This document shows positions 2,651 through 60,757 of a stretch of DNA of 64,000 bases, one piece after another. The stretch spans positions 44,767 to 108,766 of the forward strand of contig CAVSHT010000006.1 in assembly GCA_963727895.1 (NCBI GenBank), read 5' to 3'. Made by a program: the position numbers and the translations under genes. Each line of letters begins with the position of its first letter. The stretch's first letter is position 1. The DNA is from an uncultured Methanosarcinaceae archaeon. Its GTDB lineage: Archaea; Halobacteriota; Methanosarcinia; Methanosarcinales; Methanosarcinaceae. The notes beneath the pieces were generated by a model. That model did no database searches and was not told the DNA's origin. It saw only the letters and a program-made list of their open reading frames with translations.

Positions 2651-2762
2651 CATAGGACTTATGCTTTGAACTGAGAAAATAGTAGCAAAATATCAATCAT
2701 TTAAAGCAATTATGGCAGATTCTTCGTGCTTTATTTTGAACCTCATATGCATAAGTCCTATG
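2651..2762 (+). mobile_element. MITE-like element, family A (TAGGACTTAYGC termini)
   Basis: Perfect 14-bp terminal inverted repeat CATAGGACTTATGC / GCATAAGTCCTATG; internal sequence shared with 3429..3548. Confidence 0.7.
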
Positions 2763-2831
2763 CAGATACAGAACTAAAATTGTATCTTTATATTGAGTAC
2801 TAAATTAAAAACAAAAATTAGGACTAGTAAT

Positions 2832-3230
2832 ATGGGAAAACAAACATTTGACGGAATAAAAAAGATTATGTGTATGTTTACACTGGTCTTTTTTGTAGTA
2901 TCATTGACTGTTGCATCAGCAAGTGCAGGGTCAAATAACACGTATAAAATAGAGAAAGCAAAGTTGGATACAGAGAAATCTACATTAGAAAAAGAAAAAA
3001 TAGCAATATTAAATGAAAAGGCTACATTAGAAAAAGAAAAACAAAAGTTAGAACTACAGAAAAATAAATTGAGCACCAAAAATAGTAAAGAGTATCAAAA
3101 TTGGCTCAATAATTATAATAAATTTTTAACAAAATATAATAAATGTTTAAGCAAATATAAGGCATGGGAAACCAAATACAATAACTGTTTGAACAAATAC
3201 ACTCTCCTAAAACAAAAATATAAAATTTAA
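2832..3230 (+). CDS. Secreted, Lys-rich coiled-coil protein of unknown function
   Basis: Signal peptide ending VASASA; EK heptads followed by Tyr heptads. Confidence 0.65.
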   Translation: MGKQTFDGIKKIMCMFTLVFFVVSLTVASASAGSNNTYKIEKAKLDTEKSTLEKEKIAILNEKATLEKEKQKLELQKNKLSTKNSKEYQNWLNNYNKFLTKYNKCLSKYKAWETKYNNCLNKYTLLKQKYKI

Positions 3231-3285
3231 AAGAAATAAATACTGAAATTATAACTATATTATAAAAAAGTGGCTATACACAGAA

Positions 3286-3415
3286 GACAGTGCGCCGATT
3301 TTCTGTAAACTATATATTTCTAGAGCTATGAATAGAACATTCGATATACCAGATCAATTTCATCCATAGCGTACAAAAATCTAACTTGAATTTACAGCAA
3401 ATTTGCGACGCTGCC
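3286..3415. mobile_element. MITE-like element, family B (130 bp)
   Basis: Left GACAGTGCGCCGATTTTCTGTAAA vs reverse complement of right end GGCAGCGTCGCAAATTTGCTGTAAA; non-coding interior. Confidence 0.5.
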
Positions 3416-3428
3416 AAGTGATTTTCTT

Positions 3429-3548
3429 ATCGGTTTACGCGCTTGAGGAACAAATAAAGCACGAATAAATCTGTCACGGATTTCATTAATCCAACATTTT
3501 AATGCTTTATGCTATTGATATTCTCAGTTCAAGTGCGTAAATTCCGAT
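3429..3548 (-). mobile_element. MITE-like element, family A, inverted relative to 2651..2762
   Basis: Ends ATCGGTTTACGC / GCGTAAATTCCGAT; contains reverse complements of TTGAACTGAGAA (3521-3532) and TTCGTGCTTTATTT (3452-3465) found in the 2651 copy. Confidence 0.65.
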
Positions 3549-52586: not shown

Positions 52587-52635
52587 AGAATTCTCTGAAC
52601 GAAATTAGTTAAAGAATTCTCTAAACTAAATTAGT
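52587..52635. repeat. 23-bp direct repeat upstream of the transcription regulator
   Basis: AGAATTCTCT(G/A)AAC(G/T)AAATTAGT at 52587 and 52613. Confidence 0.65.
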
Positions 52636-52678
52636 GAATTTATTCCTTTTTCATAAATTCAGGACGGAGACTATAATA

Positions 52679-53488
52679 ATGAATCCCTGCTTGCTTGATC
52701 TTGTTCTGTTTTCAGAGAAGAGAAAAGATTTTTTCCTGCTCCTGAAAGAAGGTCCCAAGGGCATTGATGAAATACTTGAGAAACTTCAGGTGTCCAGGAC
52801 AGCTCTTCTCCCACAAATTAAAAAGTTGAAAGAAGATAATTTGGTAATACATGAAGAGGGAATGTACAGGCTCAGCGCCATAGGGGAAATTATTGTAGAA
52901 AAAGTGCAGCCTCTACTTGATACTCTGTCAATATTTGATAAAAATGAAGACTTTTGGGCTAATAGAAGACTTGCTCCCATTCCTCCCCATCTTATAAGAA
53001 GAATTAGTGAGCTTGGAGATTATCACCTTATAGAGCCGGATCTCAGTCATACTTTTGATTTAAACCAGGAATTTGTAAATAATCTTTCAAGTGCGAGCTA
53101 TGTTCATATGTTTTGTTCTTATTTCCATCCTCATTTCCCTTCTCTTTTTCTTAACCTTGCAAGAAAAGGAATTGAAGTTTCACTTATTTTGAATGAAGCT
53201 GTATACTCGCGGTTTGTAGAAGATTTCACAGAGGAAGGAACAGAACTTTTCAGTGCGGAAAACTCAAGTATTTACATTCTGAAAAAAGAAGGAGTGGAAA
53301 CTCCTGCGCTCGTTGCTGCTGCTAACAGGGTACTAAGTCTGGGATTATTTAATGAGAGTGGAAGATTTGATCGCCAATATGTGGTAAGTTTCGAATCACG
53401 AGCAGTAAAATGGGGAGAAGAACTCTTCAACTATTACAGGGATATAAGCAAGGAAATAACAATTGATCTTGTTTCAAAATTACAGTAA
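52679..53488 (+). CDS. Winged-HTH transcriptional regulator (ArsR-like HTH + DUF1724-type domain)
   Basis: SEKRK..LLL.EGP....EI...L.V....LLPQIKKL; FW....L..IP.HL; A.KWGEELF.YY. Confidence 0.82.
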   Translation: MNPCLLDLVLFSEKRKDFFLLLKEGPKGIDEILEKLQVSRTALLPQIKKLKEDNLVIHEEGMYRLSAIGEIIVEKVQPLLDTLSIFDKNEDFWANRRLAPIPPHLIRRISELGDYHLIEPDLSHTFDLNQEFVNNLSSASYVHMFCSYFHPHFPSLFLNLARKGIEVSLILNEAVYSRFVEDFTEEGTELFSAENSSIYILKKEGVETPALVAAANRVLSLGLFNESGRFDRQYVVSFESRAVKWGEELFNYYRDISKEITIDLVSKLQ

Positions 53489-53661: not shown

Positions 53662-53715
53662 TTTATATATTAGGTATGCCTAAATACGAATAAATTCAAA
53701 ATTAGGTTCCCCTAA
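53662..53715 (+). promoter_or_regulatory. feoB promoter: TATA box followed by two DtxR/SirR-type operators
   Basis: TTTATATA 53662-69; TTAGGTATGCCTAA 53670-83; TTAGGTTCCCCTAA 53702-15. Confidence 0.75.
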
Positions 53716-53731: not shown

Positions 53732-56002
53732 ATGAAATTGCCAGTTATTTGTCCTGAAAAAGAGTGTTGCTGTGGGAAAACAGACTGCATTCCTGGAAAA
53801 GGACTTCCAAAAATTGTACTTATAGGAAATCCTAACGTGGGAAAAAGCAGCCTATTCAATTCCCTTTCCGGAAGTTATACTCTGGTTTCCAACTATCCGG
53901 GAACCTCAGTTGAAATAAGTCATGGAAAAGCAAGTATCGGAGATACAGAATATGAACTCATTGATACGCCTGGAATGTATTCTCTGCTTCCTATAAGTGA
54001 GGAAGAGCGAGTCTCACAACTTTTGCTTTTTGAGGAGAAGCCTTTGGTTTACCTCCATGTAGTGGATGCCCGAAATCTCAGACGCATGCTTTCCTTTACT
54101 TTGCAGCTCCTTGAAGCTGAGATTCCTCTTATCCTTGTTTTGAACATGATGGACGAGGCTGAAGAAAGAGGAATTGAAATCGATATCTCTAAACTCAGTA
54201 GATTGCTCAAAATTCCTGTCGTTGGAACCATTTCAAGAGACGGAAAAGGAATAGAAGAACTTAAAGCTGCAATTCTGGAGTTTGTCCCTAAAAATGATAC
54301 GCAAAAATTCAACTATGGTACAGAAATTGAACCATCTATAGAAGCAGTTGAAGATTTGCTTGTTCCTGAAAACGAAGTTGGAATCTCAAAAAGAGTTATC
54401 TCACTTTTATTGCTCCAAAAAGACCTAAAAGCTCTTGAATTCCTTCAAAAAATGGAAAAATCTTCTGAATCTTGTGATGAAAATTGGAAAAAAAGTTCCG
54501 AAGAAATCCAAAAACTTACAGAAGCCGCTTCAAATCTCTTTGAAGTTCCTCTTTCCTATCTTTTCACTCTAAAACGCCAGGAGCATGTAAACGAAATTGT
54601 AGAACAGGTAATGAAGATACCTGAAAGAATAGAAAGAAAAAGTGGTGAGAATGCAGGAACATTTGGAATAAAGAATAGTAATGTAAACGGTGGAGCAGAG
54701 AGGATAAATAAAAACAATAGGGAAACTCGAGTAACAGAGTCGGAAAAGGGCAGTGAAATAAAAGAGGATCATGCCGAAATTTCACGGGAGAAAGACATAC
54801 TCGAATTAAACGCTAACTTAGCGAGAAAATACAAGAACGTAATAACGCAAAAAAGGAGTCTCGATTTTTCCGATAAAGTTGACAGTATTCTCATACATCC
54901 TGTGCTCGGGATACCTGTGTTGTTTTTAGTCCTGTATTTCGGGCTCTATCTATTCGTTGGTGTGTTTGCAGCAGGGACAGTTGTTGATTTCCTGGAAAAT
55001 ACGGTATTTGGAGGATATATAAATCCCTTTATTACTGCAAAGTTTATCTCGCTTGTACCTTATCCGATTTTGCAGGATCTTTTTGTTGGGGAATATGGAA
55101 TTTTTACCCAGGCTGTGACATATGCAATTGCTCTTATCCTTCCGATAGTGGGAGCCTTTTTCCTTGTGTTTTCCATTATAGAAGACACGGGTTATCTTCC
55201 AAGGCTTAGTCTGCTTCTGGATGGCATGTTCAAGAAAATAGGGCTCAGTGGAAGAGCTGTAATTCCAATGGTACTCGGGTTTGGTTGCTCTACAATGGCT
55301 ACTGTGGTTACCCGCACCCTTGAGACGAAGAGGGAACGGCTTATTGCAAATATCTTGCTGGCTCTTGCAATTCCTTGCTCAGCACAATTAGGCATTATTC
55401 TTTCAATTCTCTCAGGAAACCCTGATAGTTTGCTCATCTGGTCTATAGTAATAATACTGGAATTTGTCCTGATAGGTTTTCTGGCTTCCAGAATCCTGCC
55501 AGGAGAAGCTCCTACATTCATACTTGAAATTCCCCCTCTCAGAAAGCCTAAACTTTCAAACATACTGGTGAAAACCTACTCCAGAATGCAATGGTATTTC
55601 CTTGAAGTGCTTCCGTTATTTGTACTGGCAAGTGTTCTGATCTGGATCGGCAGACTAACAGGTCTTTTTGATCTTATCCTGAAAGTCATAAAATACCCAA
55701 CAGTCTGGATAGGTCTGCCCCCCAATGCAGCTGAGGTCTTTCTCTTTGGATTCTTCAGAAGAGATTTCGGGGCAGCGGGACTTTATAAACTGCATGATTC
55801 CGGATTACTTACAGGGGTTCAACTAGTAGTTGCAGCCATTACTCTCACTCTCTTTATGCCCTGTATAGCTCAGTTCATGATAACGATAAAAGAAAGAGGT
55901 TTAAAAACAGCTCTTGCAATCTCGGGTTTTATTTTCCCGTTTGCATTTCTTACAGGATTCATTGTAAATAACCTGTTGAAATTGATGGGGGTCACCCTAT
56001 GA
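53732..56002 (+). CDS. feoB: Ferrous iron transport protein B
   Basis: G1 GNPNVGKS, NYPGT.V, DTPG.YS, NMMD; EDTGYL.R, GFGC, IPCSAQL, PCIA membrane motifs. Confidence 0.96.
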   Translation: MKLPVICPEKECCCGKTDCIPGKGLPKIVLIGNPNVGKSSLFNSLSGSYTLVSNYPGTSVEISHGKASIGDTEYELIDTPGMYSLLPISEEERVSQLLLFEEKPLVYLHVVDARNLRRMLSFTLQLLEAEIPLILVLNMMDEAEERGIEIDISKLSRLLKIPVVGTISRDGKGIEELKAAILEFVPKNDTQKFNYGTEIEPSIEAVEDLLVPENEVGISKRVISLLLLQKDLKALEFLQKMEKSSESCDENWKKSSEEIQKLTEAASNLFEVPLSYLFTLKRQEHVNEIVEQVMKIPERIERKSGENAGTFGIKNSNVNGGAERINKNNRETRVTESEKGSEIKEDHAEISREKDILELNANLARKYKNVITQKRSLDFSDKVDSILIHPVLGIPVLFLVLYFGLYLFVGVFAAGTVVDFLENTVFGGYINPFITAKFISLVPYPILQDLFVGEYGIFTQAVTYAIALILPIVGAFFLVFSIIEDTGYLPRLSLLLDGMFKKIGLSGRAVIPMVLGFGCSTMATVVTRTLETKRERLIANILLALAIPCSAQLGIILSILSGNPDSLLIWSIVIILEFVLIGFLASRILPGEAPTFILEIPPLRKPKLSNILVKTYSRMQWYFLEVLPLFVLASVLIWIGRLTGLFDLILKVIKYPTVWIGLPPNAAEVFLFGFFRRDFGAAGLYKLHDSGLLTGVQLVVAAITLTLFMPCIAQFMITIKERGLKTALAISGFIFPFAFLTGFIVNNLLKLMGVTL

Positions 56003-56166
56003 AATGCGCATTATGTGGAAACGAGTTTGAGAAAGCGGACGAAACGAAGTGTACTGGCTGCGGAAAACTCCACAGCTGCAACAAGCAGTGCTGCCCAAAC
56101 TGTGGCTATGAACTTGTACAAGAAGCAAAGATTATTCAATCCATAAGGAAGTTTTTCAAATGGTAA
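55999..56166 (+). CDS. 55-aa Cys-rich small protein between feoB and feoA (absent from ORF track)
   Basis: MKCALCGNEFEKADETKCTGCGKLHSCNKQCCPNCGYELVQEAKIIQSIRKFFKW*; ATGA overlap with feoB stop, GGGGGT RBS, overlaps feoA start. Confidence 0.85.
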   Translation: MKCALCGNEFEKADETKCTGCGKLHSCNKQCCPNCGYELVQEAKIIQSIRKFFKW

Positions 56167-56411
56167 CCAAAAACTCACACTTTAACCTAAAGACTATAAC
56201 TCTCTGCGCAATGGAACCCAGAAAAACCGGAAAAATTGATCACCTTGAAACAAAGAACCCGGGTATTCTACAGAAGTTAATAGCTATGGGTGTCCTGCCT
56301 GGTATGCCCATTACTTTGCTCCGGCGTTCCCCTTCATATCTTTTTGAGGTTGACCAGACCAGATATGCTGTTGATAGGGAAATAGCAAACCATATTTATG
56401 TTAAATGTTAA
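56160..56411 (+). CDS. feoA: Ferrous iron transport protein A
   Basis: L.KL.AMGVLPG..I.LLR..P......V..TRYAV..EIA..I.V SH3-like pattern. Confidence 0.9.
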   Translation: MVTKNSHFNLKTITLCAMEPRKTGKIDHLETKNPGILQKLIAMGVLPGMPITLLRRSPSYLFEVDQTRYAVDREIANHIYVKC

Positions 56412-56499: not shown

Positions 56500-57450
56500 T
56501 CATTTACGTTCTCCAAGGAAGATCATCATTCCTGCATGTGAAGCTTTTTTATAAATATCCTCCAGCATTTCAAGCAAATCCTCTTCTCCATGCCAGAAGG
56601 AAAATTTTCCAAGCCTTTTTGGAAGGACTGCTGGAGCTGGAGGGATATGGGCCTCAAGGGAAGAGTTTCTTTCCTTTTCATAATTTTCAGAAAGCTTGCC
56701 CCAGAAAGTTTCCGGATCAAGTGGTAGTGGCTCTGGAGAAAAAGGAGATGTTTCCATTTCTTTTTGGGCTCCGGTTTCGGTCCCGATCTCAACATTAGAA
56801 CCTTCGAGAAGATTTCTGGCTTCTGCAACAAGGTTCTGGTTTTCCGGGCATGAACCCTTTCCGAGAATGGACATAAAATCGTTCATATCTACTCCTCTTA
56901 GCTTAAAGATAAGGAAAGGGTCCCTGTCAAATTCTTCCCCGAGCAGGTAGTAGACGGCTGCAATATGCTTACAGGGGTTAGACCAATCCGGGCAGGAACA
57001 GTCGGTTTCAAGGTCGTCGAGCTTTTCAGGGAAAAGGGATAAGCCTATTTCCTTAAATGCAGAGTCAATATCTTCTGGCATCTCGTCTGCGAGGATCTTT
57101 GCTGCAAAAATGGGCTTCAAGGCGAGTCTTTCTGCAAGAAGTTCCCATTCGGAACCGTTCAGTGTACGGACTTTGATTGTTACCGAATAGGGCTTAGGAT
57201 TTGAACCCTGAACTTTAGCCCTTACAAGTCCTGTCTCTATTTTTATGGAAGTTACCTGGCCTTTACGGGCATAAGTTTTTCCGCGGGTTAACCTGGTTCC
57301 CAGGTTAAAGCTTTCAAGAGTTTTGATCCAGCGTTTTGCCCACCAGCTCTGGACAAAGCTCCCACGTTTGGATTTTGCTTTGATTCCACCTTTGACTTCA
57401 ATTGGCTTTGAGGGTTCATAATAACCATAGTCGTCCCAGTAAGCTGCCAT
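56500..57450 (-). CDS. SWIM zinc-finger protein (partner of SNF2 helicase)
   Basis: SWWAKRW, RL.RG.TYAR.GQV, A.VQGS...PY.V, CSCPDW..PCKHIAAV.Y, DPF..F..RG. Confidence 0.9.
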   Translation of the reverse strand: MAAYWDDYGYYEPSKPIEVKGGIKAKSKRGSFVQSWWAKRWIKTLESFNLGTRLTRGKTYARKGQVTSIKIETGLVRAKVQGSNPKPYSVTIKVRTLNGSEWELLAERLALKPIFAAKILADEMPEDIDSAFKEIGLSLFPEKLDDLETDCSCPDWSNPCKHIAAVYYLLGEEFDRDPFLIFKLRGVDMNDFMSILGKGSCPENQNLVAEARNLLEGSNVEIGTETGAQKEMETSPFSPEPLPLDPETFWGKLSENYEKERNSSLEAHIPPAPAVLPKRLGKFSFWHGEEDLLEMLEDIYKKASHAGMMIFLGERK

Positions 57451-57451
57451 T

Positions 57452-60400
57452 TTATTCACCTACCGCTTCTTCTCTAAGAGCAAAAATGTCCTTTAATTCA
57501 TTATTGGAAAGTTCTGTCAGCCAGGCTTCCCCTGTCCCGACAACATTCTCTGCGACCTGTACTTTACGTTCAATAATCTCATCTATTTTTTCTTCAAGCG
57601 TGCCCGCGCAGATGAACTTGTGAACCTCAACGTTCTTTGTCTGGCCTATACGGAATGTCCTGTCAGTTGCCTGGTTTTCAACAGCAGGGTTCCACCAGCG
57701 ATCGAAATGGAATACATGATTGGCTCCAGTAAGGTTAAGCTCCGTACCTCCGGCTTTAAGGGAGAGGACAAAAATCGGAAGGTACTCTTTTCCCTCCTGA
57801 AAACGCTCAAGCATCCGGTCCCGCTGCTTTCTGGGAACCCTGCCGTGAAGGAAAAGGACTTCACAGCCGAAGCTTGCCTGTAGTTGCTCTTTTAGCATTT
57901 TTCCCATCTCCGCAAACTGGGTGAAAACAAGGGCTTTTTCTCCGTTTTCCAGAACCACATCCAGCATTTCGGTAAGTCTTTCAAGTTTTCCTGACCGTCC
58001 GGAAATTTCAGAGTTGTCCTTCAAAAACTGTGCCGGATGGTTGCAGACCTGCTTGAGCCTGGAAAGGGCAGATAGGATTATTCCTTTTCTCTGAATGCCT
58101 TCCTCATCAGCTTCTTCCATTGCCTCTTCGATATCTTCGAGGACTGCAGCATAGAGTGAAGCCTGTTATTTTGTCAGCGTACAATAGGTCTTCATCTCCA
58201 TTTTTTCCGGTAGGTCAGATATAATTGAACTGTCAGTCTTCAGACGGCGCAGAATAAAGGGGGAAGTAATTTCTTTTAGCTTTCTTGCAGCTTCCTGATC
58301 TCTTTCAGCCTGAATAGGAATGAAGAAGTTCCGCCTGAAACCAGCCTGGCTTCCGAGGAAGCCTGGATTTAAAAACTCCATAATGGACCAGAGGTCTCCA
58401 ACGTTATTTTCAACTGGAGTTCCTGTTAGGGCTATACGGTAATCGGCTTCCAGAGCTCTGGCGGCTTTTGCCTGTTTAGTTTCAGGGTTTTTGATATTCT
58501 GGGCTTCGTCAAGTACAATTCCCGTTCAGGGAACCCTTTTTAAAAACTTAACATCCCGCTGCAAAAGTCCATAGCTTGAGATAACAATATTATAGTTCAT
58601 GGCTTCGTTTTTGAATTCCTCTTCTTTTTTCCGGCTTGTGCCGTGGTGTACCATTACCGAAAGTTCAGGAGTAAAGCGGGCAGCCTCTTTTTTCCAGTTA
58701 TTGATGACCGAAGTCGGACAGACCAGAAGAACCGGTCTTGTAGCTGCAGGTTTTAGGGCATTAGGAGCAATAGGAGCAATAAGAGCATTAGAATTGTTAG
58801 GGACGTTAATAGGATTTGCATATTCAAGTCCATCTGCCTCTTCTTCAACCTGCCCCAGATCATGCTGGATAAGAGCAAGTGTCTGTATGGTTTTTCCAAG
58901 CCCCATATCGTCTGCAAGGCAGGCTCCTATGCCTACTTGCCTCAAAAAAGCAAGCCAGGAGTAACCTCGAAACTGATAGGGACGAAGGGTTCCTGAAAAA
59001 CCATTGGGAGCTGGAAGTTCTTCAAATCCGGTTTTGTCCTTTAAGCGGCTGATTAATTCTCCAATCCATCCGGTTGCATTGATCCCTTCAAAGTCCATAC
59101 CTTCGGTTTTTTCTGAAGTGCCCAAAGCTAGCTTTAGAACCTCTCGAAGGCTTGCTTCTCCATGCGGGTTCTTCTTCCAGAACTCAAGAGAAGCCTTGAT
59201 TTCTGCATCGTTTACCTCTATCCACTGCCCGCGAACCTTAACAAGCGGAGCTTTGAGTTTTGCAAGAGTCCGCAACTCTTTGGCTGTTAAAACTCTGTCT
59301 CCAAGGGCGATTTCCCAGTCAAAGCTGATGATTTCGTCGAGTGTAAGCCCGTTTCCAGCCTGTAACTTTTTGCTTTTGACTTTTGCCTGGGCTTTTAAGT
59401 GGGTTTTTGTACCTTTCCGGGTCCACCAGCCAGGGAGAAGTAACCCAAATCCTGCCTGACTTAAGTTCACTGCACTTTCATTCAGAAAGCGGTAGGCGTC
59501 TTTCGTATCAAGGGAATATCCAGATGGGTTGGGAGCCTCAAGGCTGAAAGCGATTCCTGCGTTAATGCCGGCAGCCTGCCCAAGAGAAGATAACAGAAAC
59601 TGACGGATGTTTTTCGCATCATATTTTTTCAACGGACTGCCTTTTTTTGGCTTCCAGGCTTCTTTTACAGGAATCAGAAGGCTTGGGTCCTCGTAAGATT
59701 GAAGAAGGTAGCGGACGTACCACAGTCCTTTGGGAATTTCGATATCATCTATCTCTTCCCTGCTTCTTTTGTTTTCTTTGGTATCTTCTATTTCTTCTAT
59801 TTCTTCTATTTCTTCAGTTTTTTTGGCTTTTTCGGTTTCTTCGTCCTCAACTGGTTCTTCCAGCCGGAAACAGAACCTGAAAGGTGAAGTAGTAAGTATC
59901 GTAAGAGGACGCTGCCATTCACGAGCCCGAGCCTCAAGCTGAATAAGTTCAGTATCGTCTCCATAAATCAGCCCGTTCGGGCTTTTCAGAGCAGAAACCC
60001 AGGCATCATGAACGCTATCAAAGGATTTTCTTTTGCGCGTCTCTTTTGTGAACTCTTTTTCTCTTATCTCGGAGCGGACTATCCAATCAAGAGAAGATTC
60101 GAGAAACTGCCTTGTCACTAAAGCTGCGGATATTTCCGGCGGCCGGTCCAAAACTTCAGGAGCAAGAGCCCTTACAACAGGAGGCATTTGTTTTGCAAGT
60201 TTTGCCAGCTCTTCCGCATCTTCTCCGAAAAATACGGGTTCCCATAAAGCCTTGTATTCTCCACCCTCTTCCCTGACTCCAGGCAGGTATTTCTGGCCGG
60301 CGACAAGCGAACCTGCAAATTTCAGGGCATCGGTCCACCAGAGAAGCTCGTTTCCCTATATTATACCTGGGGCCAGAACCCGTTTTCCCATACAGGCACA

Positions 60401-60757
60401 GAGAAGAACAAGGGTTTCTTCAGCTTCAAGAGGATATGCATTAACAGTCCACGGAGCCAGTGAAAGTTCAGCTTTCTAATCAGGAATTTCAGCAATCAGA
60501 GAGCTGGAAAGAATCGGATTCCCGCCTATTGTCGGCACCCAGACGTTAATTTTGTCTTCCTCTTTCCGGCTAAGACTGCCCAGCAGCAACTCAAGGACAG
60601 AAGAAAGGTTTTCAAAACCAGAATCATACGGATAAGGCTTTGCCGACAGGATTTTAGGTTTTCTTCCTCGCCGAACAACCGGAATTTCCTTTTCAGTCGG
60701 GCTTTCCCCCCATAAGAGGAACTGTTTTCCAACCCTGCCTGCATGGAGAATTATCAT
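57452..60757 (-). pseudogene. SNF2-family helicase (DUF3670-type N-terminus) interrupted by four in-frame stop codons
   Basis: One frame of 1102 codons with TAG 60476-78, TAG 60356-58, TGA 58526-28, TAA 58166-68; [44 protein letters not shown] motifs. Confidence 0.92.

Follow-up and report, generated by a model that had tools for sequence, protein, structure and literature searches.

A cysteine-rich microprotein encoded between feoB and a FeoA-domain gene in a Methanosarcinaceae archaeon belongs to an unnamed Feo accessory family of archaea and bacteria

Introduction

Several iron-transport (Feo) loci carry a small cysteine-rich gene directly 3' of feoB. In E. coli and K. pneumoniae this gene is feoC (PF09012). 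The CX4CX2CX5C motif in the wing of FeoC is needed for function (PMC8749426), the E. coli and K. pneumoniae proteins bind an O2-labile [4Fe-4S] cluster (bioRxiv 2022.02.26.482101), and a stabilising role has been reported for the Salmonella protein (PMC8749426). The PF12669 family likewise consists of small cysteine-rich open reading frames (ORFs) after feoB, whose translation and function are unproven, and the role of such accessory proteins is an open question (PMC8749426). Here we describe a 55-residue ORF, called X in this paper, located between feoB and a FeoA-domain gene in a 64,000-nucleotide stretch of DNA from an uncultured Methanosarcinaceae archaeon (assembly GCA_963727895.1, contig CAVSHT010000006.1, positions 44,767 to 108,766), which we refer to as the window.

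Two further groups of proteins are relevant for comparison. The C(P)XCG microproteins, double zinc ribbons and rubredoxins (HVO_2753, PF18912, PF21349) are, like X, shorter than 70 residues and have two C(P)xCG knuckles. The DtxR/IdeR repressors with a C-terminal, SH3-like FeoA domain share their PF02742 and PF04023 domains with the full-length form of the gene that follows X. A table in PMC545781 lists "feoB1 - R" under Fur control, and this Geobacter fur-feoB1-R operon is comparable to the present locus in its gene listing. The literature covered contained no description of X or of a DtxR without DNA-binding domain beside feoB, including PMC8351635, PMC11619418, PMC11456600, PMC10846266, PMC2680965 and PMC545781; most subscription journals fell outside this coverage, and a prior mention is possible. 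A sequence-only reading of the window had proposed that X is an archaeal, FeoC-like metal or redox sensor.

Results

X is a conserved gene

Purifying selection, the overlap with feoB and the wide spread of homologues identify X, at the level of sequence, as a real gene. Its start codon and the stop codon of feoB share the sequence ATGA, and its own stop overlaps the ATG of the FeoA-domain ORF by 7 nt, so that both overlaps, and the position 55999..56166, are as the sequence-only reading had them. When the window copy was compared with 29 relatives, 16 pairs were unsaturated and gave ratios of nonsynonymous to synonymous substitution rates (dN/dS) of 0.01–0.22, while dS was saturated in the other 13. 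The variable columns at codon positions 1, 2 and 3 numbered 32, 23 and 50 of 52, respectively, and both other forward frames across X were interrupted by stops in 30/30 sequences. The 4-nt feoB–X overlap was found in all 30 loci from the archaeal family, and the gene 3' of X overlapped it by 4–10 nt in 29 of them. Within its own genome (35,240 stop-to-stop frames of at least 40 residues), the seven-cysteine pattern occurred only in X and in one CSH repeat.

Close homologues of X are annotated as genes by NCBI and JGI, either as hypothetical proteins or under stray labels such as 4Fe-4S ferredoxin-type or amidophosphoribosyltransferase, and those at 91% identity carry the label Methanosarcina. 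Two contigs from RNA libraries span the feoB–X junction, where carry-over of DNA is possible; the RNA runs were sampled in small shares and as contigs only. The X motif was not found in the M. mazei ribosome-profiling supplement files that were searched (PMC11456600), and the two FeoBs seen in them belong to other subtypes. M. acetivorans MA3478 was considered as a possible X gene and ruled out, its 243 bp being the size of the neighboring feoA. A plasmid search found no match.

Sequence and predicted structure of the X family

A phmmer search of X against 1.84 billion representatives gave 229 matches. The 150 listed, minus five long or unrelated repeat proteins, one degenerate match and seven fusions, were combined with close homologues into an alignment of 141 rows. 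All seven cysteines (C3, C6, C18, C21, C27, C32 and C35) were present in 136 of the 141 sequences, and in 63/63 sequences of a further set. The family core reads CxxC-x10-12-Cx2-3C-x5-C-x4-CxxC and is followed by a basic amphipathic helix. The window copy has CxxC-x11-CxxC-x5-C-x3-CCxxC, one histidine and the tail IIQSIRKFFKW, exactly as first described. Eight cysteines plus a histidine, as in that first description, are not typical of the family: position 31 is Cys in 73/141 members and Arg or Lys in about half of the family, and position 25 is His in only 9/141. The consensus knuckles are CPLCG and CPNCG, within the C(P)XCG definition, the window copy having Ala for the first Pro.

The C-terminal helix had a hydrophobic moment of 0.70 against 0.49 for shuffled sequences, exceeded the shuffled value in 125/139 members and carries a net charge of about +3. 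There is no hydrophobic run in X, and the amphipathic helix is its only membrane-type element. A model of X alone (predicted local distance difference test, pLDDT, 65) placed beta-bridges close to the two knuckles and a helix over residues 44–54. In a model of an X–FeoA fusion the X part reached pLDDT 71–90 with the same helix, the overall predicted template modeling score (pTM) being 0.55 and the linker of low confidence. The C-terminal helix was the only one in either X model. Prediction of a complex of FeoB, X and two zinc ions, using our own alignments, gave a score of 0.02 and a mark of 0.32, values that speak neither for nor against a complex. Fold searches with the pLDDT-65 model reached a best E of 1.7 with Foldseek and a best Z of 2.3 with VIA, which is no clear match, and the structural matches of the fusion model all fell on its FeoA part. 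Comparison of X with FeoB profiles revealed no similarity.

A related group of X–FeoA fusions from Gemmatimonadota and Verrucomicrobia (L106, L116–L118, L120, L121 and L124, whose rows are kin) has a histidine in the inner loop, C-x-H-G-C. The FeoBs of the same loci are without the N-terminal Cys/His motif described below. As read from these sequences, a ligand swap is possible.

X lies outside FeoC and PF12669

The sequence-only reading had treated a match to a characterized family as fatal to its proposal. The window X fell below every curated Pfam and NCBIfam cut-off and could be placed in no named family; against DZR_2 it scored 18.6 bits, with the cut-off at 27. The 141 family members weakly matched many zinc-ribbon and rubredoxin-like models, none consistently among the top 25 of 105 families; zinc-ribbon families made up the bulk of these matches, and rubredoxin-like models were matched by 44/141 members. 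A profile search of the PDB returned 6ydh (E 0.007), together with rubredoxins (E about 0.01) and C2H2 fingers that were picked up by cysteine spacing only. An Atlas look-up with an X homologue led to unnamed clusters, with DVU_1557/DUF7479 as a lead only (0.89). X differs from the C(P)XCG, zinc-ribbon and rubredoxin proteins in the three-cysteine loop between its knuckles and in its fixed Feo context.

Kinship to FeoC, part of the original proposal, was not borne out. With E values of up to 1 allowed, the PF09012 profile matched neither the locus nor, in the protein scan, X itself, and neither X model contains a winged helix. The inner CxxC-x5-C of X has the spacing of the last three cysteines in the E. 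coli CX4CX2CX5C motif (PMC8749426), which bind [4Fe-4S] in enterobacterial FeoC (bioRxiv 2022.02.26.482101), but the full four-cysteine motif is lacking, as the preceding cysteine sits 10–12 residues away. In contrast to FeoC, X adds two CxxC knuckles and an amphipathic helix, is found fused to FeoA and is tied to one FeoB subfamily. PF12669 had no match at the locus and was not listed for the window X at E up to 1. Unlike that family, X has no N-terminal hydrophobic segment before a Cx3-5Cx2-3Cx6-8C array; it starts with CxxC, and its seven cysteines are ordered differently. By these sequence comparisons, X represents an unnamed, cross-domain family of Feo accessory proteins that resembles the small cysteine-rich Feo partners and stands outside both FeoC and PF12669. 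The idea of a distinct, conserved, cysteine-rich accessory gene tied to feoB and lacking a winged helix is upheld.

X is linked to one FeoB subfamily

GTDB genomes were scanned with a 19-row X alignment, blind to feoB. Sixty loci were retrieved, of which one (L128) was not X, leaving 59. The titles of the 60 include Chloroflexota, Thermodesulfobacteriota, Gemmatimonadota, Verrucomicrobia, Clostridia, Hydrothermarchaeota, Bathyarchaeota, Thermoproteota and others, and X, first described as archaeal, is thus widespread in bacteria. An upstream feoB on the same strand was present in 57 of the 59 loci, with the 4-nt overlap in 31, which bears out the expectation that the ORF and its cysteine pattern are conserved next to feoB. 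In a sample from one bacterial phylum, X occurred in 42/201 genomes; among the best 30 of 47 matches there, 30/30 followed feoB and the next gene was DtxR-like in 27. Within the archaeal family, the identical 43 of 121 genomes held both this FeoB subtype and a strong adjacent X match, not counting two further weak, partial matches. The linkage counts cover the stronger matches to the X pattern.

The G domains of X-linked FeoBs formed one side of a branch with 100/98 support in an unrooted tree of 34 X-linked and 37 other rows. This tree left out 39 X rows, 12 near-duplicate non-X rows and two non-X loci that failed the pattern, and only two of its non-X rows were bacterial. The window FeoB has G, Gate and FeoB_C domains and scores above the TIGR00437 cut-off. 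It also has a polar insertion of about 70–80 residues before the membrane domain (54630–54860), and its 756 residues compare with about 660–690 in most relatives.

The cysteine-rich N-terminus of the window FeoB, to which the sequence-only reading had drawn attention, is present and was kept in 19/20 related loci; across the wider subfamily it is often CH or HxH. A CC, CH, HxH or CxC motif before the G1 box was found in 60/73 X-linked FeoBs compared with 10/40 others, in a scanned stretch that may include untranslated residues. By sequence, the motif goes with X and is neither necessary nor exclusive to it.

Other arrangements around feoB were also observed. The second feoB of the window's own genome (C9:131536–134220) belongs to another clade and has an N-terminal CC motif, no X and an intact DtxR–FeoA gene 5' of it. 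Records from Dehalococcoidia and Clostridia (L081, L083, L088, L100, L101, L102 and L122) have the X-linked feoB as two ORFs, one for the G domain and one for the membrane part. In L077, a membrane-protein gene with a REGLE motif (2659–3504), a candidate FTR1-type iron permease, lies between feoB and X.

The gene following X

The next gene in 8/30 family loci encodes a protein of about 215 residues with PF02742 and PF04023 domains; in the other 22 the metal-binding domain has been lost and X kept. Among the 59 broad loci, X was followed by a DtxR-like FeoA protein in 31, by a lone FeoA in seven and by neither in two, and was fused in frame to FeoA in 19. The window FeoA grouped with the C-terminal domains of the DtxR-like proteins with 96/87 support (82 columns, unrooted tree) and is therefore best read as a truncated DtxR-like protein and not as the ordinary FeoA for which it had been taken. 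Lone FeoA requires three changes on the FeoA tree and fusion two to three, so that repeated trimming is likely, with X left in place; the DtxR part was lost, with X retained, in at least three places. PF04023 was present in 117 of the best 120 longer X homologues (346 matches in all), and no other partner was found among those 120.

All 31 full-length DtxR-like proteins from the broad loci contained PF02742 and PF04023 (31/31 each). The DNA-binding domain that DtxR/IdeR repressors carry, PF01325, was detected in 0/31 at E up to 0.001 and in 6/6 control DtxRs, five of which come from dtxR genes that these loci carry separately. In 11/11 aligned sequences the recognition-helix block was absent, and A-C-x-F-E-H was near-invariant in the PF02742 domain. 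The full-length protein is thus probably, by its domain content, a pseudo-repressor that does not bind DNA. An invariant C-P-H-G...C-C linker was seen in the DtxR-like proteins of L069–L127 (for example, L112:3662–4312); this full-length form is absent from the window.

Operator-type sequences before feoB

Two exact TTAGG-N4-CCTAA palindromes precede feoB in the window, where 0.10 would be expected; 1/100 shuffles reached two. This sequence is the 14-bp consensus of the iron-dependent IdeR/DtxR regulators (PMC8464063). Boxes with at most one mismatch within 450 nt of the G1 box occurred in 19/22 X loci of one set, 13/51 broad X loci and 2/40 other feoBs, the last being a biased control in which some loci have a dtxR gene in between. 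The whole genome, with five exact boxes against 4.2 expected from base composition, shows no enrichment. Of these boxes, three stand before feo loci, including one (C9:131471) ahead of an intact dtxR–feoB pair; the other two (C4:62285 and C14:41049) have no evident iron gene alongside. Judging from these sites, the intact C9 DtxR (C9:131536–132168) likely represses the window operon in trans through its two boxes.

In M. barkeri MS grown on pyrite, feoA (9.4 kDa) and feoB (81.9 kDa), which have consecutive tags, were up about 1.5-fold and 2-fold, respectively (PMC9124975). Iron sensing by methanogens on pyrite is debated (PMC9124975). The predicted masses of the window proteins are 9.5 kDa (FeoA) and 84.0 kDa (FeoB), and orthology of the two gene pairs was judged by size only.

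Other features of the locus

The features of the feo operon are collected in Table 1. Immediately 5' of it is a gene for a winged helix-turn-helix regulator with a FilR1 middle domain (52634–53488, + strand). An SNF2 helicase gene (57452–60757, − strand) is broken into four ORF pieces (PF12419, PF00176, PF00271), as in a pseudogene or through assembly errors, and a SWIM zinc-finger gene (56500–57459, − strand) lies downstream of the helicase pieces.

Table 1. Features of the feo operon and its upstream region, in window coordinates.
Feature	Position	Strand	Basis or remarks
X microprotein, 55 aa	55999..56166	+	Conserved C3 C6 C18 C21 C27 C32 C35, variable C31, amphipathic basic helix ~44-54
feoB, 756 aa, X-linked FeoB subfamily	53732..56002	+	TIGR00437 424 bits, cut-off 316
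Cys-rich N-terminal extension of FeoB, residues 7-19	53750..53788	+	Read from sequence
FeoA (SH3-like) domain, 83 aa, DtxR-like remnant	56160..56411	+	PF04023; N-terminal domains lost in lineage
IdeR/DtxR-type operator half-site 1, TTAGG-N4-CCTAA palindrome	53670..53683	.	Exact match; putative binding site
IdeR/DtxR-type operator half-site 2	53702..53715	.	Exact match, 17 nt 5' of feoB start; putative binding site

Discussion

We think it very probable that X functions as a component of this Feo subtype, and we are much surer of this than of how X works. Given the fusion to FeoA and the membrane-type helix, the role we favor for this presumed metal-binding accessory subunit is that of a metal-loaded switch that works on FeoB post-translationally, in concert with FeoA, and we consider the chances of that reading to be about even. 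In such a switch, the two terminal CxxC knuckles (C3/C6 and C32/C35) would together form a single Cys4 site of zinc-ribbon or rubredoxin type, holding the fold together, and the inner C18/C21/C27 loop would bind a labile Fe(II) or Fe-S center. The fourth inner ligand may be C31 in about half of the family, and in the rest may be exchangeable or come from the FeoB N-terminal Cys/His motif. The basic amphipathic helix would keep X at the membrane surface beside FeoB, where metal loading would alter the interaction of the FeoA domain with the FeoB GTPase and so shut off import at high cytosolic iron. Transcription would be repressed separately, by an intact DtxR acting through both boxes before feoB.

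A wider proposal, which we hold only tentatively and think rather unlikely to be right as a whole, is that these loci are a so far unrecognized three-part Feo subtype of anaerobic bacteria and archaea in which the gating of iron import takes place at the protein level. An Fe or Fe-S switch between subunits would be shared by X and the FeoB N-terminal Cys/His residues, and a DtxR without DNA binding would have become a metal-gated FeoA, later trimmed to a lone FeoA or fused to X several times.

A number of observations weigh against a metal-loaded switch. The FeoB N-terminal motif is missing in 13/73 X-linked FeoBs, and 10/40 other FeoBs, including the second one in the same genome, have it without X. 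Most other FeoBs sampled work without X. No fixed packing of X on FeoA is visible in the fusion model (pTM 0.55), and the fusions could be by-products of deletions that joined neighboring genes. What the CxxC-x5-C of X has in common with FeoC is a brief stretch of spacing, which does not amount to homology. Members of the C(P)XCG group may lack a metal or hold other ones, in some cases Co or Ni, and AlphaFold2 does not distinguish between these states (PMC11241148). Shared gain and loss would follow from operon linkage by itself, and related loci are not independent. Finally, X-like seven-cysteine ORFs at L067:1504–1752 and L068:1477–1653, two of the four out-of-family loci opened, have no feo gene within 1.5 kb, and the X–FeoA fusion of L113 has no feoB within 3.5 kb.

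The alternative that survives best is that X is a structural zinc-ribbon adaptor, binding only zinc and sensing nothing, that links the FeoA domain with FeoB at the membrane or guards FeoB from proteolysis. The two C(P)xCG knuckles, the predominance of zinc-ribbon families among the weak matches and the fusion to FeoA would all suit such a protein, as would the eight cysteines of 73/141 members, enough to fill two zinc sites, and there is the stabilizing role reported for Salmonella FeoC (PMC8749426). About half of the family, however, has seven cysteines with Arg or Lys at position 31, leaving a three-ligand site, and we regard an adaptor as unlikely, if well worth keeping in mind. Three-ligand sites are unusual for structural zinc.

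X might instead be a metallochaperone or redox carrier, picking up Fe(II) on its exit from FeoB for delivery to Fe-S assembly or the DtxR-like partner, or keeping Fe(II) reduced in the manner of a rubredoxin. The rubredoxin-like matches of 44/141 members, the open three-cysteine site and the membrane-type helix are compatible with this, and the DtxR-like neighbor retains its metal-binding domain in 31/31 cases. Yet X is kept where that domain has been lost, in 22/30 family loci and 26/59 broad loci, and its sole fusion partner among the matches listed is FeoA, with no acceptor or reductase, which makes a carrier quite improbable.

We see little likelihood that the metal served by the module is Mn, Co or Ni, with X binding or sensing that metal rather than iron. 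In its favor, the FeoB subfamily is distinct and shares genomes with other FeoBs, some regulators of the DtxR family sense Mn, with a weak MntR match listed, and Co or Ni is found in certain C(P)XCG proteins (PMC11241148). On the other side, the box equals the iron-dependent IdeR/DtxR consensus (PMC8464063), and the M. barkeri MS feoA and feoB, judged orthologous by size only, rose about two-fold on pyrite (PMC9124975).

The gene overlaps at both ends of X might suggest a translational-coupling spacer or a chance ORF, a view to which we give next to no credence, contradicted as it already is by the dN/dS values of 0.01–0.22, the seven cysteines conserved across domains and the in-frame FeoA fusions.

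Whether or not X proves to be a metal-loaded switch, it is a third small cysteine-rich Feo accessory protein, for which no homology with either FeoC or PF12669 was detected. Our results suggest that the "feoA" of the window is a DtxR remnant and that many genes annotated as IdeR or DtxR after feoB may be no repressors. X, on which selection is strong, is tied to a single FeoB subfamily in both prokaryotic domains and thus offers a clean test of whether metal-sensing subunits have arisen on FeoB more than once; it also occurs in genetically usable methanogens.

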